A stretch of DNA of 64,000 bases from Candidatus Latescibacterota bacterium (lineage in GTDB: Bacteria; Latescibacterota; UBA2968). This document shows positions 30,908 through 62,649 of this stretch, one piece after another (the first letter of the stretch is position 1; each line of letters opens with the position of its first letter). The notes below the pieces were generated by a model. That model did not search any database, had not been told where the DNA came from, and saw nothing but the letters and a program-made list of their open reading frames with translations. The stretch covers positions 4,053,746 to 4,117,745 of the forward strand of contig OZ242195.1 in the NCBI GenBank assembly GCA_965205975.1, read 5' to 3'. A program made the translations under genes and the position numbers.

Positions 30908-31028
30908 AAGTGTTCATTTTCGGACACTACTGTATCAAAATCGGACACTTCCTAAACTGCCAATTTCAAGCAAATTCTCATAACTCCTTGTTATTTCATT
31001 ATTTGAATCTTTTGGCACGATTATTGCA
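30908..31028 (+). promoter_or_regulatory. Sigma-54 promoter with tandem activator sites and IHF-like site, copy 1
   Basis: TGT-N10-ACA (30911), TGT-N11-ACA (30931), taactccttgtta (30981), TGGCAC-N5-TTGCA (31013-31028). Confidence 0.8.
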
Positions 31029-31074
31029 GTAAAATCGGGACAAAGAACACGCGACGACATCCAGGGAGAACAAA

Positions 31075-33438
31075 ATGTTCCGCAATTATCTGACCGTAGC
31101 GTACCGCAACCTCGTCCGTTACAAAGTGTATTCTGCGATCAACATCACTGGCCTGGCAATCGGCATTGCGTTTTGCATCTTAACCTTCCTTTACATACGA
31201 CATGAATGGTCCTTTGACGCATTCCACGAAAAAGCAGATCGAATTTATCGCGTTTACAATAGAGGAGAAGTGGGAGAAGGCGGCGATGCCTCGGCTGCTA
31301 TGCCGGGTCCTCTCGGTCCAAAGTTGGCAGAAGCATTCCCCACACAAATGCAACATGTCGTGAGAATTAACACCACTTCTCGCACACTCCAATACGGCGA
31401 CCATGCATCTCAAGAGCGCGTTATTTACGTCGATCCGGGCTTCTGGGACATCTTTTCATTTCCCCTCGTGAAAGGTGACTCCGCAACAGCACTGAATGGC
31501 AAAGATGCCATTGTTATATCAGAAACAGCCGCTCAAAAATTCTTCGGCAACACCGACCCAATGGGGAAAACGGTCTCTTTCACCGGAAACTCAAAAATCC
31601 ACCAAGCTCTAATCACGGGCATCGTGAAAGACATCCCCGAAACATCCAGCATTCAATTCGACTGCATCCAGTCCTATGGGAATGTCGAAGACGCGCTCAA
31701 CTCGTGGAACTACACAGGTAACACCAGCACCTACGTCTTGCTCCACAATCAGGCTCGCCCCGAAGACATAGAAAAATTATTTCCGCGTTTTATAAACTGG
31801 TCGTGGCCCATCATCGGGGAAAACCAGGAACTGAAATTGCAGCCCCTTGCCGATGTGCATTTCAGTCCAGAGATCCGCGCACCCGAACCCGCCACTGACC
31901 CGGCATACAGCTACATCCTGTTGTGCATTACAGCCCTGGTCCTCTTTGTCGCCTGCGTGAACTTTATGACCCTCGCACTGGGACGGTCAGCCTCTCGGGC
32001 GCGGGAAATCGGCATCCGCAAAGTCGTTGGCGCACACAAGCCCCAGGTCATCGTGCAATTCCTCACAGAATCCGTACTCTTAAGCCTCATAGCATTTGTA
32101 ATCGGACTCGCACTATCAGAACTTTTAATGCCATTGTTCAACAACCTCATGGCGCAAAAACTATCCATAGTTGCACATCTGGATAGCCTGGCATTTGCCT
32201 CACTCATGGGTCTAACTCTAATCGTCGGCCTCCTCGCAGGTACCTATCCAGCCTTTGTCCTGTCCGGCTTTATGCCAATTCAGGTACTCAAAGGCAGATT
32301 GAAAATTGTCAGCGCGGGACTTTTCAGCCAGTTTCTCGTAATCTTCCAGATCGCGATGTCTGCGGTCCTGGTCATCAGTGCCCTCATTATGACCTCTCAA
32401 CTCGACTATTTGCGGACCAAACCCCTGGGATTTGACAGCGAACACCTAATTGCCGTAAGCCGCCTCAGCAAGCTGCGAGATCTGGGACCAAAAGGCATTG
32501 AAACCTATCGGGACGCCCTCTTATCCCATCACGCAATTCTCGGTGTAACCCAAATATATCACATGATGCGCAATGGATACCAGTCGCGCGGGGCTGTGGT
32601 ACATGAAGGAACAACCTTAAAAGGCGTGGAGATATTCTTCGTCGATTACGACTTTGTACCAACCCTCGACATCAAATTGATCGAAGGCCGAAATTATTCA
32701 CGGGACCTTGTGACAGACCCTGCTAAGTCTGTAATCATCAACCAAACCCTGGCCAAACAACTGGGACCGGGACCACCGCTCGGAAAAACACTGAAATTTT
32801 TTGATGATATGACAGTAATCGGCGTAGTAAACGATTTTCATTTTCGCTCTCTCCACCACAAAATTGGTCCCGCACTCCTGAAATGCAATCCAGAACATCA
32901 ATTTAGCCGATTGCTGGTTCGGGTGCGTGCCAACGATATCCCCGGCACACTGTCATTTATGGAAGCGCAATGGGAAGCCGTAACACAGTCCTCTGGATTC
33001 CGCTATTCATTTCTCGATGAAGGCATTGATCGCCAATACCGAACCGAAGAGCGCTGGCATCGCATGATCGGATACGGAACCCTGTTTGCCATTTTTATCG
33101 CGTGCCTGGGCGCATTTGGATTGACAGCACTCGCCGTGACCCGGCGCACCAAAGAGATCGGCATTCGCAAAATATTGGGTGCCAGCGTCACAAACGTGGT
33201 GCGTTTGCTATCGCGCGAATTCGTTCTGTTGGTCGGCATAGCAAATGTACTCGCCTGGCCAGTCGCCTATTGGGCAATGAGCAAATGGCTATCGGACTTC
33301 GCGTATCGAATTAAACTGGGCATCGGAGCATTCGCGCTGGGCGGTGTATTGACACTCTTAGTCGTAATCGGAACAGTGAGCCTGCAAGCCGTGAAAGCGG
33401 CAAAGATGAACCCCGTGGAGGCATTGCGATATGAATAA
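31075..33438 (+). CDS. ABC transporter permease, duplicated MacB-PCD/FtsX (ADOP-like), no. 1
   Basis: NYL..A.RNL, ACVNF, REIGIRKVVGA, RTKEIGIRK.LGA, PVEALRYE. Confidence 0.95.
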   Translation: MFRNYLTVAYRNLVRYKVYSAINITGLAIGIAFCILTFLYIRHEWSFDAFHEKADRIYRVYNRGEVGEGGDASAAMPGPLGPKLAEAFPTQMQHVVRINTTSRTLQYGDHASQERVIYVDPGFWDIFSFPLVKGDSATALNGKDAIVISETAAQKFFGNTDPMGKTVSFTGNSKIHQALITGIVKDIPETSSIQFDCIQSYGNVEDALNSWNYTGNTSTYVLLHNQARPEDIEKLFPRFINWSWPIIGENQELKLQPLADVHFSPEIRAPEPATDPAYSYILLCITALVLFVACVNFMTLALGRSASRAREIGIRKVVGAHKPQVIVQFLTESVLLSLIAFVIGLALSELLMPLFNNLMAQKLSIVAHLDSLAFASLMGLTLIVGLLAGTYPAFVLSGFMPIQVLKGRLKIVSAGLFSQFLVIFQIAMSAVLVISALIMTSQLDYLRTKPLGFDSEHLIAVSRLSKLRDLGPKGIETYRDALLSHHAILGVTQIYHMMRNGYQSRGAVVHEGTTLKGVEIFFVDYDFVPTLDIKLIEGRNYSRDLVTDPAKSVIINQTLAKQLGPGPPLGKTLKFFDDMTVIGVVNDFHFRSLHHKIGPALLKCNPEHQFSRLLVRVRANDIPGTLSFMEAQWEAVTQSSGFRYSFLDEGIDRQYRTEERWHRMIGYGTLFAIFIACLGAFGLTALAVTRRTKEIGIRKILGASVTNVVRLLSREFVLLVGIANVLAWPVAYWAMSKWLSDFAYRIKLGIGAFALGGVLTLLVVIGTVSLQAVKAAKMNPVEALRYE

Positions 33439-34012
33439 ACGATCAGACATAGAAAACGATGTGCAATTGATCCACATGATAAAAGCCGGCGACGAAAGCG
33501 CGTTTGGCAAACTCTACTATCTGCACCAGAATCGCGTGCGCGCCATTGTCGGGCGATATGTGCAAGACCGCGAGGAAGCCGATGACTTGATGCAGGTGGT
33601 ATTCATGAAAGTCTTTCAGAGCCTGCGCCATTTTCGCGGCGACTCGGCATTCACAACCTGGCTAACGCGCATTGCCTTCAACGTCGGACGTTCACACCTT
33701 CGGTCTCGACTATCCCGAAAAAACGGCCTAGAAACAGCAGCGCGACAAATGCCCGAACCAATTACTCTCACAACGCCAGAAGATAGCGTCATAAAAAAGG
33801 AACGCCATCAACTCTTAGCACAGGGCATGCGCACATTGCCCAAAGTGCAACAACGCGCAATGTGGCTCCGCTACATAAAAGAACTGTCCTACCGCGAAAT
33901 CGTATGGGAGATGCAAGCCCCCCTCGGCACCGTGAAAATCTGGCTCTACCGAGGGCGTCACCAGCTAAAACGCGCATTGGAAAAACAAGAGGCCGGAGGC
34001 TGGGCGGGCTGA
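33431..34012 (+). CDS. ECF RNA polymerase sigma factor, paralogue of 16835..17401
   Basis: FRGDSAFTTWLTRIAFN, LSYREI...PLGTVKIWLYRG; ATG overlaps the permease 1 stop. Confidence 0.93.
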   Translation: MNKRSDIENDVQLIHMIKAGDESAFGKLYYLHQNRVRAIVGRYVQDREEADDLMQVVFMKVFQSLRHFRGDSAFTTWLTRIAFNVGRSHLRSRLSRKNGLETAARQMPEPITLTTPEDSVIKKERHQLLAQGMRTLPKVQQRAMWLRYIKELSYREIVWEMQAPLGTVKIWLYRGRHQLKRALEKQEAGGWAG

Positions 34013-34041: not shown

Positions 34042-36546
34042 ATGATCAAAAATTATCTAACCGTTGCGATCCGCAATCTGATGCGGCACAAATTGTACAC
34101 ATCCATCAATGTACTGGGCCTTGCCATCGGCCTGGCGTGTGGCATCTTGATCCTGTTGTATATCCAGCAGGAATTTGCAGTAAATCGCTCCCACACACTG
34201 GGCGACCGCATTTACAAAGTAATTCGAGAAGAGCGCAGCAGCACACAAACAACTTACAGTAGCGGCACATCAGGCGCACTCGGACCTGTGCTAAAAGAAA
34301 CATTTCCTGAAGTAGAAACAACGGTGCGTATCTGGCGGTGGACCGTATCTGCACAATACGGCGAACGCCAGGGTCGATACTCCTTTGCACTGACAGATGA
34401 CAACTTTTTGGACGTATTTGATTTTCCCCTCATAAAAGGCGACCCAGAAACCGCGTTTCGCACACCCTACTCTGTGGTCATTACCGACGACATGGCGCAA
34501 CACTTGTTTGGCGATACGGACCCAATGGGCAAAACAGTTTCAATCGATAATCGCAGTTTTCCGGGCGAATACACAGTAACGGGCATCGTAAAAGCACCAC
34601 ATCTCTCATCAGGCTTTTATTTTCAAATACTCTCAACCACAATACCCCCCGTAGAAGAAACGCAAGAGGTGTGGACAATGTGGCGACCCACGCAATCCTG
34701 GCGTCCGGTAAACACCTATGTGCTATTAAAAGTGGGACAAAACGCAGAAAGCCTACAAGCGAAAATGCAGTCGCTGATCAAACAGTATATGGGGGATGAA
34801 GTTACTGCTCAACATAAGTCCCATTGGCCTCATTATCCCCTTCAGCCGTTGATCAAGCAGCATATGGAAGATGAAGTTGCAGCAAAAAACGCCTATCACC
34901 TACAGCCCCTGCATCGCGTGTACCTGTATGGCGAATCCGATTTTAACCCAACTGCCGACAGCCCCGTGCAACACATTTACATGCTGGCAGCTATTGGGCT
35001 GATCCTCGTGGTCATTGCCTGCGTGAACTTTACAAATCTGGCAACTGCACGCGCTGTCACCCGCAAGCGCGAAGTCGGCGTGCGAAAAGTCGTTGGCGCG
35101 CATCGTCCACAACTGATGGTCCAGTTTTTGAGCGAATCCCTGCTTTTAACCTGTTCCGCCCTGCTGATTGCCCTCGCACTGGTCGAGCTATGCCTGCCCT
35201 TATTCAACCAATTCGTGCGCGGCGATCTACACCTCAACGCGGCTACAGTAATAATAGGTACACCGGCAGTACTGGCACTAACAGTGTTGGTCGGACTGCT
35301 GGCGGGATGGTATCCAGCGTTTTTCCTCTCATCCTTTCGCCCGGTAACAGCATTAAAAAGCAGCGCGTCTTCCTCCCCGGGTTCCACAGGACTGAAGAAA
35401 GGACTCGTAGTATTTCAGTTCGGCATGTCTATCTTGCTGGTGATCTGTACCCTAATAGTTTATCAGCAACTGAAATTTATAGAAACCAAAGACATGGGCT
35501 TTGCACGCGATCACATTGTGAGTTTACCCATTTTTGTCCCTGACTTTTCCGGAGAGCCAAACCCACAAAAACGCCTTTCAGCACGCCACCAAATGGTCAA
35601 ACAGGTCTTTCTCGAACACCCCAATATCCTCAGCGCATCGGCTCTGCGATACGAAATCACGGGATACAGCGGACGACTGCGACTCGCCTGGCCCGATGGG
35701 GACCGAACAAAAGAACAGACATTTCGCATAAACGAAGTTGATGATTCATTCTTTGAAACATTTGAAATCCCCGTGCTTCGCGGTCGTGCCTTTTCAGCCG
35801 ATGTTGCCAGCGATACATCTCAGGCAATTATCTTAAACGAAACAGCCGTGCGACTCCTCGGCTGGGAGGAAGATCCGATTGGCAAACAGATTGTGTTACC
35901 AGCATACGACAACCTATCCTTGACCGTAATTGGGGTCGTAAAAGACTACCACAATTTGACGCTCCGAGAAGAAATCGCCCCTATGGGATTTTTGGCCCGC
36001 TGGAAGATGTTTTATTCCCTGACTTTACGCATCCGACCAGAAAACACCGCGCAAACCCTGTCCTTCCTCGAAACGCAGTGGAAACGCTTTGTGCCGGACG
36101 CACCCTTTGAATATCACTTCCTGGACGAACTCATAGATTGGATCTATTTCAACGAGCAACTCACCGGCAAAATGCTCGGCGTGTTCTCACTACTGGCAAT
36201 TTTTGTAGCGTGTTTGGGACTGTTCGGACTGGCCGCATTTATGGTTCAATCTCGCACCAAAGAAATTGGCGTGCGGAAGGTACTGGGCGCATCCACATCG
36301 CATCTGGTCATGCTACTCTCGCGCGAATTTATATTTCTCGTTCTTCTCGCCAATCTCATCGCCTGGCCAACCGCCTACTATCTGATGCGCGACTGGCTCT
36401 CCGGGTTTGCCTATCAGACAGACCTGAATGTCTTGCCATTTGTTGCAAGCGCGATAATGGCTCTGATCATCGCCTTTGGAACCGTGAGCCTGCAGGCCAT
36501 TCGCGCAGCGCGATCCAATCCCATTGACGCCTTGCGGTATGAGTAA
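34042..36546 (+). CDS. ABC transporter permease no. 2, with internal tandem duplication
   Basis: Same motifs; start MIKNYL after AGGAG. Confidence 0.95.
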   Translation: MIKNYLTVAIRNLMRHKLYTSINVLGLAIGLACGILILLYIQQEFAVNRSHTLGDRIYKVIREERSSTQTTYSSGTSGALGPVLKETFPEVETTVRIWRWTVSAQYGERQGRYSFALTDDNFLDVFDFPLIKGDPETAFRTPYSVVITDDMAQHLFGDTDPMGKTVSIDNRSFPGEYTVTGIVKAPHLSSGFYFQILSTTIPPVEETQEVWTMWRPTQSWRPVNTYVLLKVGQNAESLQAKMQSLIKQYMGDEVTAQHKSHWPHYPLQPLIKQHMEDEVAAKNAYHLQPLHRVYLYGESDFNPTADSPVQHIYMLAAIGLILVVIACVNFTNLATARAVTRKREVGVRKVVGAHRPQLMVQFLSESLLLTCSALLIALALVELCLPLFNQFVRGDLHLNAATVIIGTPAVLALTVLVGLLAGWYPAFFLSSFRPVTALKSSASSSPGSTGLKKGLVVFQFGMSILLVICTLIVYQQLKFIETKDMGFARDHIVSLPIFVPDFSGEPNPQKRLSARHQMVKQVFLEHPNILSASALRYEITGYSGRLRLAWPDGDRTKEQTFRINEVDDSFFETFEIPVLRGRAFSADVASDTSQAIILNETAVRLLGWEEDPIGKQIVLPAYDNLSLTVIGVVKDYHNLTLREEIAPMGFLARWKMFYSLTLRIRPENTAQTLSFLETQWKRFVPDAPFEYHFLDELIDWIYFNEQLTGKMLGVFSLLAIFVACLGLFGLAAFMVQSRTKEIGVRKVLGASTSHLVMLLSREFIFLVLLANLIAWPTAYYLMRDWLSGFAYQTDLNVLPFVASAIMALIIAFGTVSLQAIRAARSNPIDALRYE

Positions 36547-36572: not shown

Positions 36573-38972
36573 ATGTTCGGTGAAATATCTCTACTCAGCA
36601 GCTATCTGAAAACGGCGATCCGCAACCTCGCCAGGTATCGCATTTACTCCGCCATCAACATCATCGGCATTGCCATCGGCCTCGCCTTTTGCATCCTCAC
36701 CTTCCTCTTTGTCCACCACGAATGGACATACGACACCTTTCACAAAAACGCCGACCACATCTACCGGATTACAGCAAAAGAAAAAGGTCCTTTTGGTGAT
36801 CGTATGATTGGTGGGGTGCCACACGCTCTCGGTCCTGCAATCAGCGAAACATTCCCCAACATACAGACTGTTCGTTTCAGCAATGACAGCGGGGATGTGA
36901 GTATAGAAGATCGCACTTTTCGACCGCTCCTGGGTTTTGTTGATCCCAACTTCCTCGACATTTTTTCTTTCCCACTCATTCATGGCGACCCTGCGAATGC
37001 CCTTAAAGACAAATATTCTGCACTGATTACAGAAGAAGCAGCACAGAAGTATTTCAACAAAGCCAACCCGGTCGGAGAACCACTTCCAATTCAGCGGGAA
37101 AAGGAAATTCACAACTACACCATCACGGGCATCCTAAAAGACGTACCCAAAAACTCCACGCTTGAATTTGAAGTGCTACTGCCTTATGAACAGTTAGAAG
37201 CTGAGATAGAAGCTATGCAGAGGCAGTATAACTACACCTCTTTACAGGATACGTATATACTGCTCCCCCCGGATGTACACCCCAATAGTATCGAACAACA
37301 ATCTACCAAATGGATCAAAAACTGGTGGAGCGAAAGCAGAGGCGAAGAGAGACAACTCAAACTCCTCCCTATCACCCAGATGCACTTCAACCAGAACTTG
37401 CAGGAATACAACATCAGTAATCCAGTTTATTCATACATATTATCGGGCATTGCAATCCTCGTCCTGTTTATCGCCTGCGTCAACTTCACAACCTTAACCC
37501 TCGGACGGCAGGCAACCCGGGCGCGAGAAGTCGGCTTGCGAAAAGTCGTCGGCGCAAAGTGCTCGCAGATTGCAAACCAATTTATCGGGGAATCACTCTT
37601 ACTCATCCTCATCGCGCTTATCGCTGGCATTGCCATAGCAGAACTCGCCTTGCCAACGTTCAACAACTTAGTCGGACTAACCTTAGTCGGAAAATCCCTG
37701 TCCATGAGCGATGGCCTCAATCTCACAACACTCGCCTTTCTCATTCTGCTTGTCATCCTCGTCGGCATCACAGCAGGTGGGTATCCCGCCTTTATCTTAT
37801 CCCGATTGCAGCCGACCCAAATCATAGCGAGCAGATTGCAAATGAAAACCGGCAATCGTTTTGGCAATGTATTGATCATTTTTCAATTTGCCCTGTCCAT
37901 ATTTCTCATCATCACCACCCTGATGATGGGCAAACAACTCACATTTTTGCGAACCCAACCTTTGGGGTATCAAACCGAAAACATTATTACTATATCGACC
38001 TATCCTCTGGAAGAAGAAAGCAAAACCTTATCAACTGTTTTTCGGGATGCCCTACAGTCTCACCATGCAGTAGTCAGCGCGACCTGGATGGATTACAGTC
38101 TAACTAATAACACCGGGCGTAGTATGAGCTATCGAAGTTATAAAGGAAGTCCAGAGTACCGCGTTGAAAACATTGGAATTGATTACGACTTTTTCAAAAC
38201 ACTCGGCATAAAACTCGTTGCGGGTCGAGAATTCTCCAGAGAATTTCCATCTGATGAAAAAAAATCGATCATTGTCAACGAAGCATTCGTCGAAAAATTC
38301 GGCATAGAAGACCCCATTGGCAAAACAATCCAATATGGCGCATACAACAAGGCTATCATCGGCGTTGTTCGCAACTTCCACTTTCTTTCCCTGCACCATA
38401 AAATAGAACCCGCTACTATGATCCTCCAGGCATGGACTAACAAATTGTATGTTCGCATCCGTCCCGAGGATATGCCTGGCACCATTGCATTTATCAAAGA
38501 ACAGTGGGAAAAAGTCGCACCTCATCACGCATTCAGATTTTCGTTTCTCGATGAAAACATCGACAAACAATACAAAAAAGAAGAACGCTGGAACCTCATG
38601 ATCCAATACGCCACAGGATTCGCCATCTTCATCGCTGCACTCGGCGCATTTGGACTGGCGGCTCTCGCCACAACCAGACGCACCAAAGAAATCGGCATTC
38701 GCAAAGTCCTGGGCGCATCCCAAACGCAAATCCTATCCCTGCTCTCACGAGAATTTGTCCTCTACATCGCCCTATCAAGCCTCATCGCATTCCCCATCGC
38801 CTATTACGCGACCAATCAATGGTTACAAACCTTCGCCTACCGCACCGAATTGGGTATTGGCACCTTCTTACTCGGCAGCCTTATCTTGTTCTTCATCGTA
38901 CTCACAACCATCACGACCCAGACCCTCAAAGCCGCACACGCAAATCCGGCAGACGCTTTGAGAGATGAATAG
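36573..38972 (+). CDS. ABC transporter permease no. 3
   Basis: Same motifs, ends PADALRDE; close paralogue of no. 5. Confidence 0.95.
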   Translation: MFGEISLLSSYLKTAIRNLARYRIYSAINIIGIAIGLAFCILTFLFVHHEWTYDTFHKNADHIYRITAKEKGPFGDRMIGGVPHALGPAISETFPNIQTVRFSNDSGDVSIEDRTFRPLLGFVDPNFLDIFSFPLIHGDPANALKDKYSALITEEAAQKYFNKANPVGEPLPIQREKEIHNYTITGILKDVPKNSTLEFEVLLPYEQLEAEIEAMQRQYNYTSLQDTYILLPPDVHPNSIEQQSTKWIKNWWSESRGEERQLKLLPITQMHFNQNLQEYNISNPVYSYILSGIAILVLFIACVNFTTLTLGRQATRAREVGLRKVVGAKCSQIANQFIGESLLLILIALIAGIAIAELALPTFNNLVGLTLVGKSLSMSDGLNLTTLAFLILLVILVGITAGGYPAFILSRLQPTQIIASRLQMKTGNRFGNVLIIFQFALSIFLIITTLMMGKQLTFLRTQPLGYQTENIITISTYPLEEESKTLSTVFRDALQSHHAVVSATWMDYSLTNNTGRSMSYRSYKGSPEYRVENIGIDYDFFKTLGIKLVAGREFSREFPSDEKKSIIVNEAFVEKFGIEDPIGKTIQYGAYNKAIIGVVRNFHFLSLHHKIEPATMILQAWTNKLYVRIRPEDMPGTIAFIKEQWEKVAPHHAFRFSFLDENIDKQYKKEERWNLMIQYATGFAIFIAALGAFGLAALATTRRTKEIGIRKVLGASQTQILSLLSREFVLYIALSSLIAFPIAYYATNQWLQTFAYRTELGIGTFLLGSLILFFIVLTTITTQTLKAAHANPADALRDE

Positions 38973-41953: not shown

Positions 41954-42058
41954 AAAAAAGTCTCCAACACGCAATGCGAATTTCTTTTTATTTCTCGTGA
42001 TTTTAAATATCGTGAATTTCCGGTAGTTTTGCAATTCTGTATTTATAGGAGAAGTAAA

Positions 42059-49137: not shown

Positions 49138-49185
49138 AATGATCGAATAAAATCCCCACGGCTACCATTTGCATCCACCCATCAG

Positions 49186-52370: not shown

Positions 52371-52372
52371 AA

Positions 52373-52777
52373 CGCCTTGCAAGCGCGATTGAAAAACTAC
52401 ACGCCCAAACGCTTTCTCCTGATGAAGCTGTTGCACCGGCATTGACAGATTCGAGTCGCGTCTTTGTAAAAGATGGGGACCAGTGCTGGTTTATCAAACT
52501 CTCAGATATTCAATTGTTCGAAGTTTCTGGCAATCACACGCGGGTCTATTTTCAAAAATTCAAACCCCTTATTCCGCGCACCCTCAACCACCTTGAAGAG
52601 CGTCTGGACAAACGCATATTTTTTCGCGTCAATCGCCAACAAATTGTCAATTTACAGTATATCGAAAAAATTGAGCCCTATTTTCAAGGCAGCCTGAAAG
52701 TATTTTTGAAAGGGGGCTATGAAATTGAAATTTCCCGACGTCAGACACAAAAGTTTCGAGAACGCCTGAGTCTTTAA
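52373..52777 (+). pseudogene. LytTR response regulator, receiver domain deleted
   Basis: RLASAIEK..VFVKDGDQCWF..FFRVNRQQIVNL..ISRR. Confidence 0.8.
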
Positions 52778-53779: not shown

Positions 53780-53900
53780 AAGTGTTCATTTTCGGACACT
53801 ACTGTATCAAAATCGGACACTTATTGAACTGCGCTCATGACACAAATTTTCATAACTACTTGTAAAATATAGAGAATAAGTTTTTGGCACAGGAATTGCT
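53780..53900 (+). promoter_or_regulatory. Sigma-54 promoter with tandem activator sites, copy 2
   Basis: 43-bp block identical to 30908-30950; TGGCAC-N5-TTGCT at 53885-53900; same spacing as copy 1. Confidence 0.8.
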
Positions 53901-54061: not shown

Positions 54062-55420
54062 GTGTCAACACCCGAACGAGATGATGCGCCAAAAAAGAAA
54101 GCCGTACCCAGCTTTGTAGGCAGGGGTTCTTCATCGTCCCAACCGTCAACAGACACCACGGGCCAGGATGGCATGGACCGCAGGGTCGAAAAAAAAGTAT
54201 GGACACCAAAGCGCATCGCCAGCATCAGCGGGATCGCCGTATTTGTGTGTGCCGTGATCTACATGGCGATCTTTGGCGACCACAGCGCCCGGCTCAATGT
54301 ACAGATCGACCGGATTACCATCTCGGAAGTCACGCGCGGTCCTTTCCAGGAATTTACTGTCCAGCGCGGCACCGTATTGCCAATTCAAACATATTATATC
54401 GACGCACTGGAAGGCGGACAAATAGAGGAAATCTTCCTGGAAGAAGGAACCATGGTCGAAAAAGGCATACCCATTTTGAAATTGTCAAACCCCACCCTGG
54501 AACAAAATATTTTAACCCAGGAAGCCCGTTTATTTGAACAAATCAACAACATGGAAAACACCCGGTTGAATCTGGAAAATCGGGCCATTAGCAACCGCCA
54601 GGAACTGATGCGCGTTGAATTGAACTTGCGGGAGACAGAACGACAATACGAAAAGCAGAAAGTTTTGTTCGAACGCGGATTGACTTCCCAAGACCTGTTT
54701 GAAAGTGCGCGGGATCGATATCAAAACGATCAAAAACGCAGGTCATTTGCATTGGAAACAGTACGCCAGGACTCGCTGTATCGCATCAACCAACTCGCTG
54801 CACTGGACACGAGTGCCAGGAGTTTGCAACGGCAATTGGAGCATGTGCGCCGTCCGTTAGAGAACCTGACCGTGCGCGCGCCCATTTCCGGACAATTATC
54901 CCAATTAAATGCAGAAATCGGCCAGTTGATGAACAGGGGAAGGCGCATTGGTCAGGTCGATGTGCTCGACGCCTATAAAATGCGGGTGGGCATCGATGAA
55001 TTTTACATCACCAGAATCACAAAAGGACTCAAAGGCACCATTGAAATCGACGATGAAACTTATGAACTAACAATCCGTCGGGTCTTTCCCGAAGTCTTAG
55101 AGGGACAATTTGAAGTCGATATGGATTTTGTGGATGCGACACCGCAAAGCATTCGGCGCGGTCAAACAGAACAGATCCGATTGGAACTCGACGCACCCGA
55201 AGAAGCCCTCTTGCTCCCCCGCGGTGGATTTTATCAAACAACAGGCGGCAACTGGGTATTTGTCATCGAAGGCGACGAAGCCATACGCCGCGAAGTGCGC
55301 ATAGGCCGCCAAAGCCCCGAATACTTCGAAGTCCTCGCCGGCCTCTCTCCCGGCGAGCGCGTGGTCACATCGTCTTATGACAATTACGAAGAAATCGACA
55401 AGCTGGTTTTAAAGCGGTAA
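54062..55420 (+). CDS. Periplasmic adaptor / membrane fusion protein (HlyD/MacA-like)
   Basis: N-terminal TM, EGGQIEE lipoyl half, coiled coil, RAPISGQL, GGFYQTTGGNW, GLSPGERV; start may be MDRRV. Confidence 0.92.
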   Translation: MSTPERDDAPKKKAVPSFVGRGSSSSQPSTDTTGQDGMDRRVEKKVWTPKRIASISGIAVFVCAVIYMAIFGDHSARLNVQIDRITISEVTRGPFQEFTVQRGTVLPIQTYYIDALEGGQIEEIFLEEGTMVEKGIPILKLSNPTLEQNILTQEARLFEQINNMENTRLNLENRAISNRQELMRVELNLRETERQYEKQKVLFERGLTSQDLFESARDRYQNDQKRRSFALETVRQDSLYRINQLAALDTSARSLQRQLEHVRRPLENLTVRAPISGQLSQLNAEIGQLMNRGRRIGQVDVLDAYKMRVGIDEFYITRITKGLKGTIEIDDETYELTIRRVFPEVLEGQFEVDMDFVDATPQSIRRGQTEQIRLELDAPEEALLLPRGGFYQTTGGNWVFVIEGDEAIRREVRIGRQSPEYFEVLAGLSPGERVVTSSYDNYEEIDKLVLKR

Positions 55421-55451: not shown

Positions 55452-56129
55452 ATGATCAAAACCGTCAACCTCCAGAAAGTCTATACCACAGAAGAAGTGG
55501 AAACAACCGCCCTGAACAATGTCAACATAGACATTGACGAAGGCGAATTCGTCGCCGTAATGGGACCCTCAGGATGCGGCAAATCCACACTCTTGAACGT
55601 ACTCGGCCTGCTGGACAACCCGAGCGACGGAGAATACTTTCTAAACGAAGAAGAAGTATCCAAACACACCGAACGGCAAAGAGCCAACACCCGCAAGTCA
55701 AACATCGGCTTTGTATTTCAAAGTTTCAACCTCATCGACGAACTGACCGTCGCCGAAAACGTGGAACTGCCCCTGTTATATCTGGGCTTACCGGCCAGCG
55801 AGCGCAAACAGCGCCTGGATGAATCGCTGGAATACATGGGCATCAAACACCGCGAAAAGCATTTCCCTCAGCAACTGTCAGGCGGTCAGCAGCAGCGCGT
55901 AGCCGTAGCCAGAGCCGTCATAGCAAACCCCAACATCATCCTCGCAGACGAGCCAACGGGTAATCTCGACTCGGCAAACGGCAACGAGGTCATGGACCTG
56001 TTGACCGAACTGAACAAAAACGGCACCACAATCGTCATGGTAACCCACAACTCGCACGACGCGGGCTACGCCCATCGCATCATCCACCTGTTCGACGGTC
56101 ATGTCGTCACGGAGAACATCAGGGGATAG
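55452..56129 (+). CDS. ABC transporter ATP-binding protein (LolD/MacB-type) no. 1
   Basis: [29 protein letters not shown]. Confidence 0.96.
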   Translation: MIKTVNLQKVYTTEEVETTALNNVNIDIDEGEFVAVMGPSGCGKSTLLNVLGLLDNPSDGEYFLNEEEVSKHTERQRANTRKSNIGFVFQSFNLIDELTVAENVELPLLYLGLPASERKQRLDESLEYMGIKHREKHFPQQLSGGQQQRVAVARAVIANPNIILADEPTGNLDSANGNEVMDLLTELNKNGTTIVMVTHNSHDAGYAHRIIHLFDGHVVTENIRG

Positions 56130-56141: not shown

Positions 56142-58568
56142 ATGCTCAAAAACTATCTCAAAATCGCCATTCGCAACATCGCCAGAAATAAGACATTCTC
56201 CGCAATCAACATCATCGGGCTCGCGATTGGAATGGCGTGCTGTGTTCTGATTTTTTCGACGGTGCATCAACAATGGTCTTTTGATCGGTTTCACAAAAAC
56301 AGAGATGTGATCTTTCGGGTATTAACGCGGGAAATTACCAGAGAAGGCGAAGTCGCATTTATGGTATTACAGCCGAAGGAACTCGCAGGCACATTGAAGG
56401 ACGCATTTCCAGAAATCGTTCATACAACGCGATTTGCCAATTCGTATGTGATTGTCGGGCGTGAAGACAAGCTGTTTCAAGAACGCATTGCACTAATAGA
56501 TCCGCCTTATTTGCAGATATTCACCTATCCGCTATTAGCCGGAGATGCAACTGACGATTTGCACAGCGTGGTCATCAGCGAGCGCGTGGCGAAAAAATAC
56601 TTTGGTGAAACAGAAAATTACGCCCGTGTGATAGGCCAATCGCTGCGTATTAAAGGCGCTCGAGATCCACAAGATTTTGTGGTGACAGGCATTATGAAAG
56701 CCTTGCCGTTGACCTCGAGTATGCGTGGAAATGACATTCTCATCCCCTTTGAGAATGCATATCGAGATGACACATGGTATTTCAGGACATCGCAGACCCG
56801 GAGTGGGAATGTTGTATCGACTTATGTTCAAATCCAGGACGCGAGTCAGGCAACTGCATTAAATGAAAAACTCGCTTCTTTTACCAGCGAACTTCTGGAC
56901 AAGCAGCGAAGCAGAAGGATCAAGAGCGGGCGTATTCAAGATCGCGCCGATGCGTTTCGATTGCAATTGCAAGCACTCGTAGATATTCATTTTCAAAATG
57001 AAATGCGCGGAGGATACGCACAAAAGATCAGCCCGATATTTGCTTATATCCTATCAGCCATTGGTGTGGTGGTGTTGCTGATCGCCTGTATCAATTTTAC
57101 AACCCTGTCACTGGGACAATCGACGCAGCGGTCACTGGAAGTGGGCATGCGCAAGGTGTTGGGCGCACATCGCGGTAATTTGATGCGGCAGTTTTGGGGT
57201 GAAACCCTGCTGATGAGTTTGCTCGCCCTGATCCTGGGATTGGTACTTGCAGAATTGTTTCTACCGGTATTTAACAACCTGATGGGCGGGGCAGTGGCGA
57301 TTGTGCCGAGTTGGGAATTGGTCGTTGCGTTGATGGGTATTCTCGTATTTGTCGGACTCGCCGCAGGCAGTTATCCAGCACTAATACTGTCAAAATTTCA
57401 ACCCATATCCGTATTTAAGGGCAACACGCGGACAAGACGGCGCAAACCCTTTACACGCGCCCTCGTCATCGTACAATATGCCTTGTCGATTGTTTTGATG
57501 ATCGGCACGGGCATTATGGCGCAACAATTGGATTATTTGCAGTCAAAAAGTTTGGGATATACCAGCGAACAGGTGGTGGTCCTGGACAAAGCGACGCCGG
57601 AAACGCCCCAACGCTTGCGCGATGCCTTACGCGGTCATGATCGCATCGTAAATATTGCTGGCGGTGGCTATTCATTTGTAAATAGTCAAGAACAAAGAGG
57701 CCATAGATTGCCCAATGGCAAGTCGATCACTATCTGGACCATGTGGATTGATGAAGCCTATCTGAAAACACTGGGTATTGGCCTGAAGATGGGGCGAAAC
57801 TTTTCTCCAGAATTTCCGAGCGATCCTCAGCGGGCTGTAATTGTGAACGAGAAGCTGGTAGATATCTTTGGATGGGATAACCCCATTGGACAACCCTTTC
57901 CCGTACTGAACAAAAAAGAGCCGCACCAGGTGGTTGGCGTGGTGAAAAATTTTCACTTCGAATCACTTCACAACGAAATCGAGCCAATTGCATTCTATAA
58001 CTCAATAGGCGACTCGCCAGGGGATCGCGGCCCGAGCGTGATACTCGTGCGTATTCGTCCAGAAGATGTGAACGGCAGCATTGAGTTGCTGCGAGAAACC
58101 TGGAAAAAAATTGCACCCGATCGTCCATTTTCGATCGCATTCCTGGATCAACAGGTCAACCGGCAATACCACGCAGAGCAACAATGGCTCCAAATCGTCT
58201 GGTACGCATCGGGATTTGGCATCTTAATTGCGTGTCTGGGTTTATTTGGCCTCGCATCCCTATCTGTGTCGCAGCGCACCAAAGAAATAGGCATCCGCAA
58301 AGTATTAGGCGCATCGGTAAGTGAAATCACCGCGCTTCTATCCCGGGAATTTGTACTCCTGCTCACCATCGCCAATCTCATTGCCTGGCCCATAGCCTAC
58401 TGGGCAATGGGCCAGTGGCTCAACAGCTTTGCGTATCGCATTGAACCCGGCATAAAAATATATCTTCTGTGTAGCCTGTTAGCCGTTGTCATCGCCCTGT
58501 GTACCATAAGCCTTCAAGCCATCCGCGCCGCGCGTTCCAATCCCGTTGACGCCCTGCGGTATGAGTAG
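56142..58568 (+). CDS. ABC transporter permease no. 6
   Basis: Same permease motifs, ends PVDALRYE. Confidence 0.95.
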   Translation: MLKNYLKIAIRNIARNKTFSAINIIGLAIGMACCVLIFSTVHQQWSFDRFHKNRDVIFRVLTREITREGEVAFMVLQPKELAGTLKDAFPEIVHTTRFANSYVIVGREDKLFQERIALIDPPYLQIFTYPLLAGDATDDLHSVVISERVAKKYFGETENYARVIGQSLRIKGARDPQDFVVTGIMKALPLTSSMRGNDILIPFENAYRDDTWYFRTSQTRSGNVVSTYVQIQDASQATALNEKLASFTSELLDKQRSRRIKSGRIQDRADAFRLQLQALVDIHFQNEMRGGYAQKISPIFAYILSAIGVVVLLIACINFTTLSLGQSTQRSLEVGMRKVLGAHRGNLMRQFWGETLLMSLLALILGLVLAELFLPVFNNLMGGAVAIVPSWELVVALMGILVFVGLAAGSYPALILSKFQPISVFKGNTRTRRRKPFTRALVIVQYALSIVLMIGTGIMAQQLDYLQSKSLGYTSEQVVVLDKATPETPQRLRDALRGHDRIVNIAGGGYSFVNSQEQRGHRLPNGKSITIWTMWIDEAYLKTLGIGLKMGRNFSPEFPSDPQRAVIVNEKLVDIFGWDNPIGQPFPVLNKKEPHQVVGVVKNFHFESLHNEIEPIAFYNSIGDSPGDRGPSVILVRIRPEDVNGSIELLRETWKKIAPDRPFSIAFLDQQVNRQYHAEQQWLQIVWYASGFGILIACLGLFGLASLSVSQRTKEIGIRKVLGASVSEITALLSREFVLLLTIANLIAWPIAYWAMGQWLNSFAYRIEPGIKIYLLCSLLAVVIALCTISLQAIRAARSNPVDALRYE

Positions 58569-58616: not shown

Positions 58617-58874
58617 ATGCCCAAAATCTCTATCAAATTGCCGCCTTTAGACGCCGAAGACACCGTGGAAGTAACCGTAGTGGTAAACGGCAAAAGCAGA
58701 AAATACGATTACCGCATGGAACTATTCGCCTGGGAGGAACACGTCGAACCCCACGAACAGAGGGTCATGTGTTTGAAACGGATTGTGGAAAACTACGACG
58801 AAGACTGGTCGCTCGTAGAAATTGGCGAACCATCCGAACACGAGGTATCTATCCTGTTCGAACGCCGCGCATAA
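58617..58874 (+). CDS. Small hypothetical protein (85 aa) in the ABC operon
   Basis: GGAGA SD; MPKISIKLPP..VEVTVVVNG..YRMELFAW. Confidence 0.75.
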   Translation: MPKISIKLPPLDAEDTVEVTVVVNGKSRKYDYRMELFAWEEHVEPHEQRVMCLKRIVENYDEDWSLVEIGEPSEHEVSILFERRA

Positions 58875-58884: not shown

Positions 58885-59559
58885 ATGATCGAACTAAAAA
58901 ACATCGAAAAATACTACGAAAACGGCATCGTAAAAACATTCGTACTGCGGCGCATTGATCTACAAATTCGCGAAGGGGAATTTGTATCCATCATGGGACC
59001 CTCTGGTGCTGGCAAATCAACCCTATTGCACATCCTGGGCATGCTGGACACCGCCTCGAATGGAGAGTACCATTTTTACAACCGCGCAGTTCACAAACTG
59101 GATGAACGCGCATTGACCGAACTACACCGCGACCACATCGGATTTGTATTTCAAAGCTACCATCTAATCGACGAACTAACAGTCTCCGAAAATTTGGAAA
59201 CCCCCCTCTTATATCAAAAAGTAAAAGGTGCCGAGCGCAAAGGCCGCATCGCCGAAATGCTGGACCGCTTCAACATCGTGGCAAAAAAGCGACTATTCCC
59301 CAACCAGTTATCCGGCGGACAACAGCAGTTGGTAGGCATAGCCCGAGCATTGATCACACAACCAAAATTGATACTGGCCGACGAGCCAACCGGCAACCTG
59401 AACTCGGCAGAAGGCGAGCGGATCATGACCCTGTTCAAACACCTGAATGCCGAAGGCGTAACCATTGTCCAATGCACGCACTCAGAGAAAAACGCCGCTT
59501 ACGGAGACCGCATCGTACACCTATCGGACGGATGGTTGGACCGGGACGAGCAGTTGTAA
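58885..59559 (+). CDS. ABC transporter ATP-binding protein no. 2
   Basis: [26 protein letters not shown]. Confidence 0.96.
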
Positions 59560-59612: not shown

Positions 59613-60209
59613 ATGAAAGAACACGTCGATCCAACACTCGCGAACGAATTGGCCGAAGGCACGTCAGACAAAAAAATAAATGCCCTGTTCGCCTACATGG
59701 AAGCGAGGGGCCAGTCCTACTACGACGAAGTCGTAACGCAACTCGAACACGCGCTCCAGTGCGCCAATCTGGCCCAGCTCGCCAATGGAGACGCGATTCA
59801 GATAACTGCCGCACTATTGCACGATATCGGCCATTTTCTGATGGACGAACACGCAGAAAACGCAGATTTCCACACCCAGGACTTTCTCCACGAAGAAGTG
59901 GGCGCCGCGTACATAGCACCCTTTTTTATCGAGGCGGTGACCGAACCGGTGAAACTTCACGTTCCGGCCAAGCGATACATCTGCACCACGGATTCGACCT
60001 ACTACAACACCCTTTCCGAAGCCTCTAAGCATAGTTTCCAACTGCAAGGAGGCCTCATGTCAGATCGGGAAAGGACCGAGTTCGAAAGCAATCCTTACTA
60101 CCAGAATGCCGTGCACCTCAGGAAATGGGATGATCTGGCCAAGGTGAAGAACCTGGAAACCCCAGAGCTCGAAACGTACAGGGACGCAGTGGCGCATTGT
60201 CTGAAGTAA
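59613..60209 (+). CDS. HD-domain protein, PhnZ/TmpB-like
   Basis: Y.E.VTQLEHALQCA, AALLHDIGH, HEEVGA, LHVPAKRY, LSEAS..S..LQGG, LRKWDD.AK. Confidence 0.88.
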   Translation: MKEHVDPTLANELAEGTSDKKINALFAYMEARGQSYYDEVVTQLEHALQCANLAQLANGDAIQITAALLHDIGHFLMDEHAENADFHTQDFLHEEVGAAYIAPFFIEAVTEPVKLHVPAKRYICTTDSTYYNTLSEASKHSFQLQGGLMSDRERTEFESNPYYQNAVHLRKWDDLAKVKNLETPELETYRDAVAHCLK

Positions 60210-60246
60210 CTGGTTGCCCGACCAATGCACACATTTAAAAAAAATC

Positions 60247-62649
60247 ATGCTCCAAAACTATCTAAAAATCGCCCTGCGAAATTTGATGCGCCACAAGGGA
60301 TACTCGCTGATCAACGTACTGGGATTATCGGTGGGCGTGGCCTGTTGTGTCCTCATCGGATTATTTATTCACGATGAATTTCGCGTCAATCGGTTTCACA
60401 CAAAGAGCGACCGAATTTGCAAATTGCTCCGCGAGATGCGCAACGATGACGGCACCCGGGACATGGGATTTGGCACATCGGGCGCAGCGGGACCCGCGCT
60501 AAAAAAAGACTATTCAGAAATCGAAACAGTCGTGCGATACCTGTCGTGGGGCTATATCTGGACCACGTATAAAGACCGCAAATTCAATCAGCGATTCTGT
60601 TTGACAGATCCCGATTTTTTGGATGTCTTCGATTTTGAACTGATGAAGGGAGATCGCGCGACAGTACTCAAAGAACCGCTTTCCATCCTGGTGACAGAAG
60701 CAACCGCGCGGCGATTTTTTGGGGATGACGACCCAATAGGAAAAGTGCTTACCGTCGATGACCGGTATATGGGCGGGGTATATACGATTACCGGGGTACT
60801 AAAAAACGTGCCTCGGCAATCAACCATGCAATTTGACATCGTATGTGCAACCGTAAATACCTATTGGACGCGGAACGTATTTGAAAACTGGGCGGTGGAT
60901 TCAACCTGGCGACCGGCACACAATTACATCTTATTGCGAGAAGGCGCAGATGCGAAAGCACTCGAAGCAAAATTGCCCGAATTCATGGCGCGATACATGG
61001 GCGATGAAATCGTCAAAAAGAGCACCTATTTTTTGCAACCCTTAGAGCGAATCTATCTGTATTCCAAAGTGGATTATGGCATCTCATTTCACAGCGACAT
61101 CACGTATGTGTACCTGTTTGCAATCATCGGACTTTTTATTTTACTGATTGCGTGCATCAATTTTATGAACCTGTCAACAGCGCGCTCTGCGCGACGGGCA
61201 CGCGAAGTCGGATTGCGAAAAGTAGTGGGAGCCTATCGCGCCCAATTGATTCGACAGTTCTTGGGAGAGACATTTTTGACCGCACTGTTGGCCGGGCTAT
61301 TGTCGCTAATTATTGTGAAAATTTCACTACCTCTCCTGAACAACTTTGCCAGAAAAACAATTGCACTTGAAGGACAGACCCTGTGGTATGCGGTTGCCGG
61401 ACTATTTGTTTTAACCGTGCTGGTAAGCCTGCTCTCCGGAGGATATCCCGCGCTATTTCTATCCAGTTTTCGACCCGTAACAGTACTGAAAGGCACGCTT
61501 ATTTCGGGTACCAGAAGCGGCCGATTGCGACAGATCCTCGTGATATTTCAATTTGCGATCTCGACATTTTTAATCGCGGGTACATACACCGTGTATCAGC
61601 AATTGAATTATGTGCAAAATAAAAATCTGGGATTCGATAAAGATCTCATAGTTCTAACCTGGTTATTTTCTACAGACCGACGCTTGACAGATAATTATGT
61701 GAATATCAAAAATGAATATCTGAAGCACCCAAACATCTTGAAAGCATCGGCATCGCATTCTTCGATGGGATATGGGGGACAACTGGACAGGGTATTTCCC
61801 GAAGGCAGGGGAGGGGAAGACTGGCGGATGCGCGTCCTGGGCGTGGATGAAGCCTTTTTAGACACCTATAATCTGGAACTCACAGCGGGCCGCAATTTTT
61901 CACTATCAGTGACAACCGACACATCTCAGGCATTTATCCTGAACGAAACTGCCGTGAAGCGATTGGGATGGACCGAGCCGCTTGGAAAGGCGTTTGGATG
62001 GGCTGCATCAAACCGGGAGAAAGGCGTTGTGATCGGCGTGGTAAAAGATTTTCACAACCGGTCGCTACACGAAATCATCCGCCCCGTGGCGATTGCCATG
62101 TGGCAACCCAAGTTCAACGTACTAACACTAAAAATTCGCGGTCAGGATATTGATGAAACGCTTAAATATATCGGTGAAATATGGCGGAAATATATTCCCG
62201 AAAAGCCGTTTGAATATCGCTTTTTAGACGAAAACCTGGCGCGTTATTATCTGGCCGAACAACGGATAGGAACACTTATAACCGTATTTGCCGGGCTGGC
62301 GATTGTAATCGCGTGCCTGGGCCTGTTTGGCCTCGCGGCATTTACAGCAGAGCAACGCACCAAAGAAATTGGCATCCGCAAAACCCTGGGCGCATCCGTC
62401 CCCAATATTGTGCGCTTGCTCTCGCGAGAAGTTGTGATTCTGGTACTACTGGCCAATCTAATCGCATTCCCACTGGCCTATTGGGTCATGAATGAATGGT
62501 TGGCGGGATTTGCGTACCGCATAGATCTGGGCGCGCTGGTATTTGTATTGAGCGGATTACTAACAATGGCAATCGCGATCATGACCGTGAGCACACAGGC
62601 GATTCGCGCAGCCCTGACCGATCCAGCGACAGCATTGCGATATGAATAG
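60247..62649 (+). CDS. ABC transporter permease no. 7
   Basis: Same permease motifs, ends PATALRYE. Confidence 0.95.
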   Translation: MLQNYLKIALRNLMRHKGYSLINVLGLSVGVACCVLIGLFIHDEFRVNRFHTKSDRICKLLREMRNDDGTRDMGFGTSGAAGPALKKDYSEIETVVRYLSWGYIWTTYKDRKFNQRFCLTDPDFLDVFDFELMKGDRATVLKEPLSILVTEATARRFFGDDDPIGKVLTVDDRYMGGVYTITGVLKNVPRQSTMQFDIVCATVNTYWTRNVFENWAVDSTWRPAHNYILLREGADAKALEAKLPEFMARYMGDEIVKKSTYFLQPLERIYLYSKVDYGISFHSDITYVYLFAIIGLFILLIACINFMNLSTARSARRAREVGLRKVVGAYRAQLIRQFLGETFLTALLAGLLSLIIVKISLPLLNNFARKTIALEGQTLWYAVAGLFVLTVLVSLLSGGYPALFLSSFRPVTVLKGTLISGTRSGRLRQILVIFQFAISTFLIAGTYTVYQQLNYVQNKNLGFDKDLIVLTWLFSTDRRLTDNYVNIKNEYLKHPNILKASASHSSMGYGGQLDRVFPEGRGGEDWRMRVLGVDEAFLDTYNLELTAGRNFSLSVTTDTSQAFILNETAVKRLGWTEPLGKAFGWAASNREKGVVIGVVKDFHNRSLHEIIRPVAIAMWQPKFNVLTLKIRGQDIDETLKYIGEIWRKYIPEKPFEYRFLDENLARYYLAEQRIGTLITVFAGLAIVIACLGLFGLAAFTAEQRTKEIGIRKTLGASVPNIVRLLSREVVILVLLANLIAFPLAYWVMNEWLAGFAYRIDLGALVFVLSGLLTMAIAIMTVSTQAIRAALTDPATALRYE

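Follow-up and report, generated by a model that had tools for sequence, protein, structure and literature searches.

Duplicated MacB-type permeases of a Latescibacterota bacterium: an array with a conserved ATPase core in a probable sigma-54-dependent envelope-transport regulon

The DNA analysed here is a stretch of 64,000 nucleotides, referred to below as the window, from contig OZ242195.1 (positions 4,053,746 to 4,117,745 of the forward strand; assembly GCA_965205975.1), which belongs to the closed, 5.56 Mb genome of an uncultured, sponge-associated Candidatus Latescibacterota bacterium. It carries an array of genes for duplicated MacB/FtsX-type permeases together with genes for a periplasmic adaptor and two ATPases, and we consider it probable, at roughly 0.6, that this locus forms the principal part of an envelope-transport regulon under sigma-54 control that is built from ATP-binding cassette (ABC) parts of type VII and uses a shared motor. 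The locus is the Latescibacterota representative of a known but functionally uncharacterised class, the arrays of duplicated MacB-type 'orphan' permeases. What is added here is a promoter module present at eight loci of the genome, its likely activator, an invariant gene core that includes a clade-specific small protein, and the turnover of permeases around that core.

Two units make up the array. In unit 1, the permease gene P1 is followed by a gene for an extracytoplasmic function (ECF) sigma factor, by P2, P3 and P4, then by a MazF/PemK pair on the opposite strand and finally by P5, and unit 2 runs in the order HlyD adaptor, ATP1, P6, U91, ATP2, PhnZ-like HD-domain oxygenase and P7. Open reading frame (ORF) listing and Pfam and NCBIfam scans of the window gave seven intact MacB_PCD/FtsX permeases of 787-834 amino acids (aa), all on the plus strand, and all seven have two MacB_PCD (PF12704) and two FtsX (PF02687) stretches and eight predicted transmembrane (TM) helices. 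Because of this duplication and helix number, each permease of about 800 aa can be regarded as a single-chain counterpart of the MacB transmembrane dimer. The initial annotation had listed seven full-length permeases, an eighth 3' remnant (which is real though tiny, at 27 codons), five permeases without an adjacent ATPase (P1-P5), and one adaptor, two ATPases and an 85-aa gene in the second unit; this inventory was correct, except that the ECF sigma gene and the PhnZ-like gene had been passed over. The principal features are as follows.

30910-30950, plus strand: upstream activator site 1, a 41-nt tandem of two TCGGACAC-containing half-palindromes, identical to 53782-53822
31013-31027, plus strand: sigma-54 promoter 1 (TGGCACGATTATTGC), 62 nt before the P1 start codon
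31075-33438, plus strand: permease P1, 787 aa, without adjacent ATPase (Pfam/NCBIfam)
33431-34012, plus strand: ECF-type sigma-70 family factor, 193 aa (Sigma70_r2, r4_2; TIGR02937 at 91 bits against a cut-off of 42.9)
34042-36546, plus strand: permease P2, 834 aa, without adjacent ATPase (Pfam/NCBIfam)
36573-38972, plus strand: permease P3, 799 aa, 75% identical to P5, without adjacent ATPase (Pfam)
38996-41395, plus strand: permease P4, 799 aa, without adjacent ATPase (Pfam/NCBIfam)
42059-44422, plus strand: permease P5, 787 aa from the ATG at 42059, without adjacent ATPase (Pfam)
48110-48190, plus strand: permease 3' remnant, 81 nt that encode the last 27 residues, 89% like P4 (permeases against the window, tblastn)
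53782-53822, plus strand: upstream activator site 2, identical to site 1
53885-53899, plus strand: sigma-54 promoter 2 (TGGCACAGGAATTGC), 163-177 nt before the adaptor start
54062-55420, plus strand: HlyD-type periplasmic adaptor, 452 aa (HlyD_3, HlyD_D23; TIGR01730 at 124 bits against a cut-off of 94.9)
55452-56129, plus strand: ATP1, MacB/LolD-type ABC ATPase, 225 aa (ABC_tran)
56142-58568, plus strand: permease P6, 808 aa, ATPase-adjacent (Pfam/NCBIfam)
58617-58874, plus strand: U91, 85-aa acidic protein with no TM helix by eye (ORF)
58885-59559, plus strand: ATP2, MacB/LolD-type ATPase, 224 aa, 52% identical to ATP1 (Pfam/NCBIfam)
59613-60209, plus strand: PhnZ-like HD-domain oxygenase, 198 aa, between ATP2 and P7 (NCBIfam)
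60247-62649, plus strand: permease P7, 800 aa from the ATG at 60247, ATPase-adjacent (Pfam/NCBIfam)

Sigma-54 co-regulation of the two units, as originally proposed, is upheld by the sequences upstream of both operons, where an identical 41-nt site (two exact matches in the window against 0 expected) is followed by the strict pattern TGGCAC-N5-TTGC (two matches against 0.19 expected), each promoter standing 94 nt from the first TCGGACAC half-site of its upstream site. Position 30908, where the array had been taken to begin, is the start of this repeated regulatory site and not of a gene. The looser -24/-12 pattern TGGC-N8-TGC was uninformative, with 14 matches against 10.8 expected. Genome-wide, the module was located at eight loci of the source genome, seven with exact sites and one with a single mismatch. 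Besides P1-P4(P5), where P1-P4 are closely packed in one operon (23-30 nt between genes), and the adaptor-P7 operon, it heads the permease genes g2321, g2785 (accompanied by a copy of ATP1) and g2951, an operon containing the permease gene g4816, and a lone gene for an ATP2-like ATPase. The eighth copy (site at 2009691-2009719, minus strand) is closest in sequence to that of the adaptor operon and has behind it an operon whose products are an LRR/dockerin/cohesin-like protein of 682 aa, a dockerin and redoxin protein of 230 aa and a protein of 370 aa (L031, G000:C1:2003001-2012000, G000 being the source genome), all three of which have signal-peptide-like N-termini by eye and are predicted to be secreted. 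Altogether, about 10-11 of the 21 full-length permease paralogues of the genome stand behind the module, as do four MacB-type ATPase genes (ATP1, ATP2, a 96% identical copy of ATP1 and the lone 61% relative of ATP2), and rpoN was found once. With two mismatches allowed, the upstream-site pattern recurs in 20 of 21 related genomes, with 1-13 copies in those of the genus, against 0-1 matches per genome for a reversed-pattern control. Spacing between site and promoter is 92-95 nt in 20 of 20 modules from six arrays of the genus, and a promoter lies at that distance behind eight of the nine sites listed for three arrays of a sister family.

An NtrC-type response regulator and a sensor-less kinase likely govern this promoter module, as is strongly suggested by gene order in that sister family. 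No gene for an enhancer-binding protein was found in the window, beside the other seven site loci or inside the five same-genus arrays, and none of the roughly 21 such genes in the source genome adjoins an upstream site. In the three sister-family genomes (G015, G016 and G017), a gene for a response regulator with REC, Sigma54_activat and HTH_8 domains and a kinase gene lie divergently beside the first upstream site of the array. The orthologue of this regulator in the source genome is 76% identical, the next best match being 38%. Its gene (G000:C1:4294873-4296249) lies some 177 kb past the window, and its end is overlapped by a gene for a kinase. In this kinase, the membrane part is a hairpin of two helices joined by about 4 residues on the outside, and a periplasmic domain is absent. 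The regulator orthologue is single-copy in 20 of 21 genomes and was not found only in G014, where the upstream site was not found either and only two permease matches are present; because the relatives are not independent, this co-occurrence amounts to effectively one informative absence. The ECF sigma gene overlaps the end of P1 by 8 nt and is not followed by an anti-sigma gene. Its pairing with P1 is retained in all five other arrays of the genus, and since it is the first gene behind the promoter, ahead of the adaptor, in three of three sister-family arrays, it must have joined the unit long ago.

Synteny of the locus extends to five further genomes of the genus, where it is bounded by an MFS fragment and a PcfJ-like gene. 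Kept at the two ends of these arrays are P1-ECF and adaptor-ATP1-P6-U91-ATP2-PhnZ-P7, with a g542-type permease inserted within the adaptor-P7 unit in four of the five, and conservation is high for the adaptor (90-98%), ATP2 (97-100%) and the PhnZ-like protein (95-99%). P1 orthologues are 91-96% identical in all five genomes, and P5 orthologues 89-93% in three of them. Array content, which we compared between relatives, is not fixed: there are seven intact permeases here and 9-13 in the other five genomes, with 2-4 promoter modules per array. A tree of the permeases (FastTree, 82 sequences, no rows dropped) resolves about a dozen old types, among which the P1, P2, P6 and P7 types are present in six of six genomes. 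The g542 and g2951 types are dispersed in the source genome and lie within the array in four and three other genomes, respectively, one type of the five other genomes is absent from the source genome, and the P3/P5 and P2 clades have extra copies.

A further 15 related loci were found via U91; they may include genomes of the five-genome comparison, so that the counts are not independent. All 15 belong to Latescibacterota or Latescibacteria metagenome-assembled genomes. ATP1 is present in 15/15, U91 lies directly before ATP2 in 14/14 (the fifteenth locus is cut), and ATP2 is 90-100% conserved across the 14 loci that reach it; the PhnZ-like gene is present in 11/14 and P7 is intact in 13/14. P6 is full length in 11/15 and is absent or at most 267 aa long in the remaining four (L046, L049, L055, L056), with L056 having the ATPases without an intact downstream permease and 1.3 kb of unmatched DNA between the adaptor and the sole upstream permease match. 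Judged by these comparisons, the invariant core is adaptor-ATP1-U91-ATP2, around which the permease content varies, and the persistence of the core where P6 has been lost, in 4/15 loci, is the best evidence here that the ATPases may serve permeases other than their neighbours. The earlier suggestion of interchangeable permeases on a shared motor is in this way borne out for the variable permease set and the invariant core, and we infer the physical use of the two ATPases by the orphans. Past rearrangement within this gene set is marked by fragments of ATP2 (23-29 codons, 92-100% identical), which follow the PhnZ-like gene in seven of the 15 loci (L042, L045, L046, L050, L052-L054).

In the source genome, a MacB-type ATPase gene adjoins three of the 21 full-length permeases and 18 are without one. 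The ATPases of this type form two pairs, ATP1 with its 96% copy (at genome position 2789417, near g2785) and ATP2 with the 61% relative that stands alone. Between g2785 and the ATP1 copy there are ORFs of 225 and 197 aa (G000:C1:2788075-2789314), the second with a faint sulfotransferase match. One adaptor gene is available for the 21 permeases, and nine OEP (TolC-type) genes are present, all of them outside the window. Just four ATPase genes of this type stand under the promoter module of the regulon, so that the orphan permeases may borrow their ATPases, and it is with moderate confidence that we consider permeases without an ATPase of their own to share an ATP1/ATP2-type motor. Each permease would then be a covalent pseudo-dimer, with four TM helices and a periplasmic domain occurring twice, and its two conserved cytoplasmic coupling helices would bind two ATPase subunits. 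The coupling-helix and C-terminal motifs are nearly invariant in about 18 of the 21 permeases, judged by eye. The motor is possibly an ATP1-ATP2 heterodimer with U91 as an accessory, and the single HlyD adaptor would connect at least some permeases with a TolC-like duct whose gene lies elsewhere. The pumps would draw their substrates from the periplasm or from the outer leaflet of the inner membrane and expel them, with recognition set by the two diverged periplasmic domains of each permease; efflux as the direction, and the class of substrate, are proposed very tentatively. For induction, the sensor-less kinase would phosphorylate the NtrC-type regulator, which would bind the 41-nt site and activate the sigma-54 promoters about 94 nt downstream at the eight loci, so that their expression would be switched on together, and the ECF sigma gene within the regulon may extend the response.

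The small protein of the core, U91, has no Pfam or NCBIfam match, and its homologues form only 16 clusters, all at least 67% identical. An AlphaFold2 model (mean predicted local distance difference test score, pLDDT, of 79.4) has the order strand-strand-helix-helix-strand-strand, and a Foldseek comparison of it with the PDB gave nothing at E 0.001 or better; the top rows were kinase lobes with a TM-score of 0.3 and E above 0.001, a resemblance that was dismissed as noise. A predicted complex of U91 with ATP1 and ATP2 scored 0.41 against 0.00 for the best of three controls, with agreement between runs in at least 86% of contacts and partner pLDDT of at least 75, and the score was abolished when ATP1 was replaced. 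In the calibration of this score, the mark was attained by 58 of 80 solved complexes and by two of 110 mismatched pairs, and marks at 0.60 or under comprised only seven of the 80 solved complexes and both mismatches. Given its fixed gene position and the complex prediction, a role for U91 as an accessory of the ATPase motor is a reasonable but unproven guess.

Sequence variation among the permeases is greater in the periplasmic domains, as had been claimed: averaged over all pairs of the seven, identity amounts to 31.5% in one periplasmic domain and 33.9% in the other but reaches 49-60% in the N-terminal/TM and FtsX modules, and the periplasmic domains also stood out when dN/dS (the ratio of nonsynonymous to synonymous substitution rates) was compared per domain. 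Between P3 and P5, the periplasmic domains are 59-66% identical and the remainder 89-94%, with dN/dS of 0.30-0.40 and 0.09-0.24, respectively, and dS, which is 1.0 in the first periplasmic domain, is down to 0.19-0.28 near the ends of the genes, suggestive of gene conversion at these ends. For P1, P2, P5, P6 and P7, comparison with the orthologues of three to five other genomes gave dN/dS of 0.035-0.20 for TM regions and 0.07-0.28 for periplasmic ones, and the constraint on the ATPase-less copies (P1, P2, P5) is like that on P6 and P7. Purifying selection clearly acts on the periplasmic domains as well, though constraint is lower there, and positive selection on them was rejected at the level of domains, where dN/dS is far below 1. 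The genome carries, besides the 21 full-length paralogues, a 495-aa partial copy and further fragments, and pairwise identity among the paralogues is 22-48% genome-wide, the exceptions being P3/P5 (75%) and g3070/g3074 (74%), so the family is old and not the product of a recent burst. The description of the array as 'diversifying' is not supported, because the copies are ancient and dN/dS is low in all domains (0.04-0.40).

With regard to known families, the seven permeases score 302-339 bits against the ADOP model TIGR03434, for which the cut-off is 622.3. To our knowledge, ADOP is restricted to Acidobacteria and is defined by internal duplication, a large paralogous family and ATPase genes that are essentially never adjacent. 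The permeases resemble ADOP in being internally duplicated MacB_PCD and FtsX proteins of about 800 aa in a large paralogous family mostly without adjacent ATPase genes (21 paralogues, 18 of them without a MacB-type neighbour), and differ from it in their scores and in their host, which is a member of Latescibacterota and not of Acidobacteriota. By the curated threshold they fall outside ADOP, and from their sequences they are type VII ABC-like. The nearest solved chains are MacB (5lil, E 2.9e-11) and Spr0695. Like MacAB-TolC (5lil, 5nik), the locus combines an FtsX-type four-TM module, a periplasmic core domain, a LolD/MacB-type ATPase and an HlyD-family adaptor in an operon, but MacB is a homodimer with an N-terminally fused ATPase, whereas here the two halves are fused in one chain, there are two separate ATPase genes and the locus is without a TolC gene. 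The darobactin exporter DarBCD (NF038008, NF038010, NF038007) also has a duplicated permease (about 780 aa), an adaptor and a separate ATPase, and among named equivalogs, the adaptor and both ATPases are best matched by the DarB/C/D models; all matches are below cut-off (permeases 74-147 against 700, the adaptor to DarC 193 against 450, and the ATPases to DarD 242-278 against 375, with ATP1 at 278 bits). Unlike DarBCD, no precursor peptide or radical-SAM gene was seen in the window by ORF listing and Pfam.

Among published systems, the YbbP permease of Escherichia coli YbbAP-TesA is described in the available text of PMC12646458 as a pseudosymmetric single chain of the type VII ABC group that binds two ATPase copies via two coupling helices; it has 10 TM helices with a linking pair, whereas the permeases here have eight predicted TM helices and two full periplasmic domains, and the 26 bits that they score with the YbbP model, for which the cut-off is 999, are negligible. 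The closest parallel for the array is a 42-kb cluster in Psychroflexus torquis, reported in the part of PMC3914696 that we draw on to hold ten ADOP paralogues, ATP-binding and other transporters, a MazEF module and a thioesterase, and called there highly translated and of unknown role; like the array here, it combines clustered duplicated permeases, a few ATP-binding transporters and a MazEF module (PMC3914696). Beyond that comparison, a promoter module, a likely regulator and an invariant adaptor-ATP1-U91-ATP2 core are defined here. A 2025 survey, as far as its text is cited here, found COG0577 FtsX-like permeases and COG1136 ATPases enriched in predicted sigma-54 regulons of Gammaproteobacteria, Opitutia and Bacteroidia from promoter matrices, and claimed the first such link (PMC12316311); what is identified here, in Latescibacterota, is a particular upstream site with its spacing and a likely cognate activator of the two-component kind. 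Neither a functional study of this permease family nor anything on arrays in Latescibacterota turned up in our literature search. The initial annotation's view of an undescribed system could not be sustained, with ADOP catalogued (TIGR03434) and both the 42-kb cluster (PMC3914696) and the sigma-54 link (PMC12316311) in print, at least in the parts of these papers considered.

Sequence data from other sources give some indication of habitat and expression. For the P1-P4 stretch, 17-27% of sampled words occur in runs labelled sponge metagenome, and the best runs, with about 90%, have coded organism labels. In three RNA libraries from three studies, contigs match the 20 kb from position 30800 at 88% identity or higher and cover 30, 21 and 22 of 30 bins; because most are 90-95% alike, they come from relatives. 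These are assembled contigs, in which depth, strand and transcript ends are unreadable, and the 8-9 of 30 bins left uncovered in X21 and X22 prove nothing. Several contigs join genes differently, for example with the start of P2 attached where P5 ends, or in the form of a P3/P5 recombinant, in agreement with structural variation between genomes. The libraries are a weak hint that such arrays are transcribed, and to that limited extent they speak against the orphan permeases being unexpressed.

Several points weigh against the proposed regulon and shared motor. About 10 of the 21 permeases are without a recognised upstream site (g4803 retains only the -24/-12 element), so the regulon does not span the whole permease family, and nothing convincing was found in the way of an ECF-type promoter or a shared 8-mer upstream of the ten site-less permeases; within the window, the opposite-strand MazEF pair separates P5 from the promoter. 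The regulator was assigned from adjacency in one sister family and a single informative absence, and in the source genome its gene lies 177 kb away and has no adjoining upstream site. With respect to the motor, the binding of an orphan permease to ATP1 or ATP2 is a proposal, and the coupling motifs single out no partner because they are family-wide. The U91 complex prediction is weak by the tool's own calibration, the 64-kb window has no TolC-type gene, and the RNA evidence consists of contigs mostly of relatives, for which DNA carry-over is possible.

It is conceivable, though we think it rather unlikely, that the permeases are mechanotransmitters in the manner of FtsEX-EnvC and YbbAP-TesA, with pairs of periplasmic domains that switch partner enzymes or extract a lipid-like compound, and with the variable permease set serving as a repertoire of partner-specific actuators on the same ATPases. 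The type VII ABC group does include non-efflux members, among them the duplicated YbbP, which is found with two copies of YbbA and one of TesA per YbbP (described in PMC12646458), but the YbbP model itself barely matches the permeases here. The presence of one adaptor gene for 21 permeases would suit such a role, yet the adaptor belongs to the conserved core and is a hallmark of tripartite efflux, and the best sub-threshold NCBIfam matches of three core parts are to the peptide exporter proteins DarB, DarC and DarD. Candidate partners can be pointed to in the predicted secreted LRR/dockerin, redoxin/dockerin and 370-aa proteins that share the promoter module, in the DUF5128 beta-propeller genes paired with both g3070 and g3074, and in an alpha/beta hydrolase with an N-terminal signal peptide (by eye) that is encoded inside the array and retained in five of five other arrays; no partner enzyme, however, is consistently paired with P1-P7.

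Sensing by the permeases is a further idea to which we attach a low probability. In BceAB-BceS systems, the substrate-engaged permease signals its transport activity to the kinase, and by analogy an engaged permease of the array would signal to the sensor-less kinase, the permease set deciding which inducers are perceived. The topology of the kinase beside the activator fits, with two adjacent TM helices, a join of about 4 residues and no periplasmic domain, and BceB is also a type VII FtsX-domain permease (BceAB-BceS entries 8G4C and 7TCG are among those compared in the cited part of PMC12646458). Adjacency of kinase and transporter genes, however, is seen in the sister family only, the two being 177 kb apart in the source genome, and the regulator is NtrC-type, whereas that of Bce modules is OmpR-type. 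Such sensing would in any case complement transport by a shared motor and not replace it. That the ATPase-less permeases are unexpressed spares or genes in decay, retained only as a stock for recombination, is highly improbable, because in spite of the 27-aa remnant at 48110, the 495-aa partial copy, other fragments in the genome and in other arrays, chimeras, and the fall in P3/P5 dS from 1.0 to 0.19-0.28 at the gene ends that gene conversion would yield, all seven permeases are intact, P1, P2 and P5 have intact orthologues in three to five genomes with dN/dS of 0.035-0.28, like P6 and P7, P1-P4 form a tight operon behind a conserved promoter, and three RNA libraries have matching contigs (a weak point).

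The remaining features of the array and its surroundings include several toxin-antitoxin (TA)-type genes.

41400-41762, minus strand: MazF/PemK toxin gene (PemK_toxin, E 5e-25)
41400-42034, minus strand: MazF/PemK pair, including an upstream 97-aa ORF without a family match
47361-48057: Gp49/HTH_37 pair, TA-type (Pfam)

No MazF match was found in the other five arrays. Further TA-type ORFs in or around the array have DUF4258, DUF2442 and DUF2283 domains, and the region between the units also holds two metallophosphoesterase copies, hydrolases and a truncated His_kinase/LytTR pair. After P5 there is a segmental duplication, 44391-46430 resembling 48163-50116 at 90-95% identity, and the permease remnant at 48110-48190 sits at the left edge of the second copy. 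The duplicates differ in gene structure, because the C-terminal part of a 233-aa DUF2442 ORF in one copy stands as a lone 120-aa ORF in the other (44700-45062, 48251-48952). At 51553-52777, a His_kinase (PF06580) ORF ends at the N-box without HATPase_c, and the LytTR ORF behind it has no receiver domain, as though a deletion had gone through a LytS/LytT-type pair, yet both pieces have been retained, with 88-97% identity, by five other genomes. A 195-aa MFS fragment (30217-30804) lies directly upstream of the array; in four of the genus's five other genomes it takes the form of two pieces, as would be expected of an old pseudogene. The PhnZ-like protein falls under both curated cut-offs (NF052439, 272 against 300 bits; TIGR03276, 198 against 214.6), and no link to phosphonate genes was seen nearby. 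Copies of an IS256/Mutator-family transposase gene adjoin two permease loci (window 24611-25795, minus strand; L011 4295-5479, minus strand), and paralogous 518-aa proteins with AAA-ATPase_like and PDDEXK_9 domains are encoded beside two regulon loci (window 28223-29779; L004 2094-3650). In the divergent g3070/g3074 pair (74% identical), each permease gene is preceded by a gene for a DUF5128 six-bladed beta-propeller (L011, G000:C1:3064001-3083000), with peroxiredoxin-like and subtilase genes further upstream.

Taken at its widest, the picture would be one of a universal adaptor-ATP1-U91-ATP2 motor, cassette-like permeases and a flux-sensing kinase, together forming an inducible and reconfigurable envelope-defence repertoire of a sponge symbiont, which we offer as a speculation that is doubtful at present. 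If true, it would provide a general answer to the role of the 'orphan' ADOP-type permeases. In several phyla, the duplicated orphan MacB-type permeases rank with the largest of the transporter families still uncharacterised, and the locus offers a comparative case, with a defined promoter module, a likely activator, a motor core that has outlasted the deletion of a neighbouring permease, and a lone ATPase under the same switch. The idea of a borrowed ATPase is thereby turned into specific, testable protein pairs and a specific DNA site.

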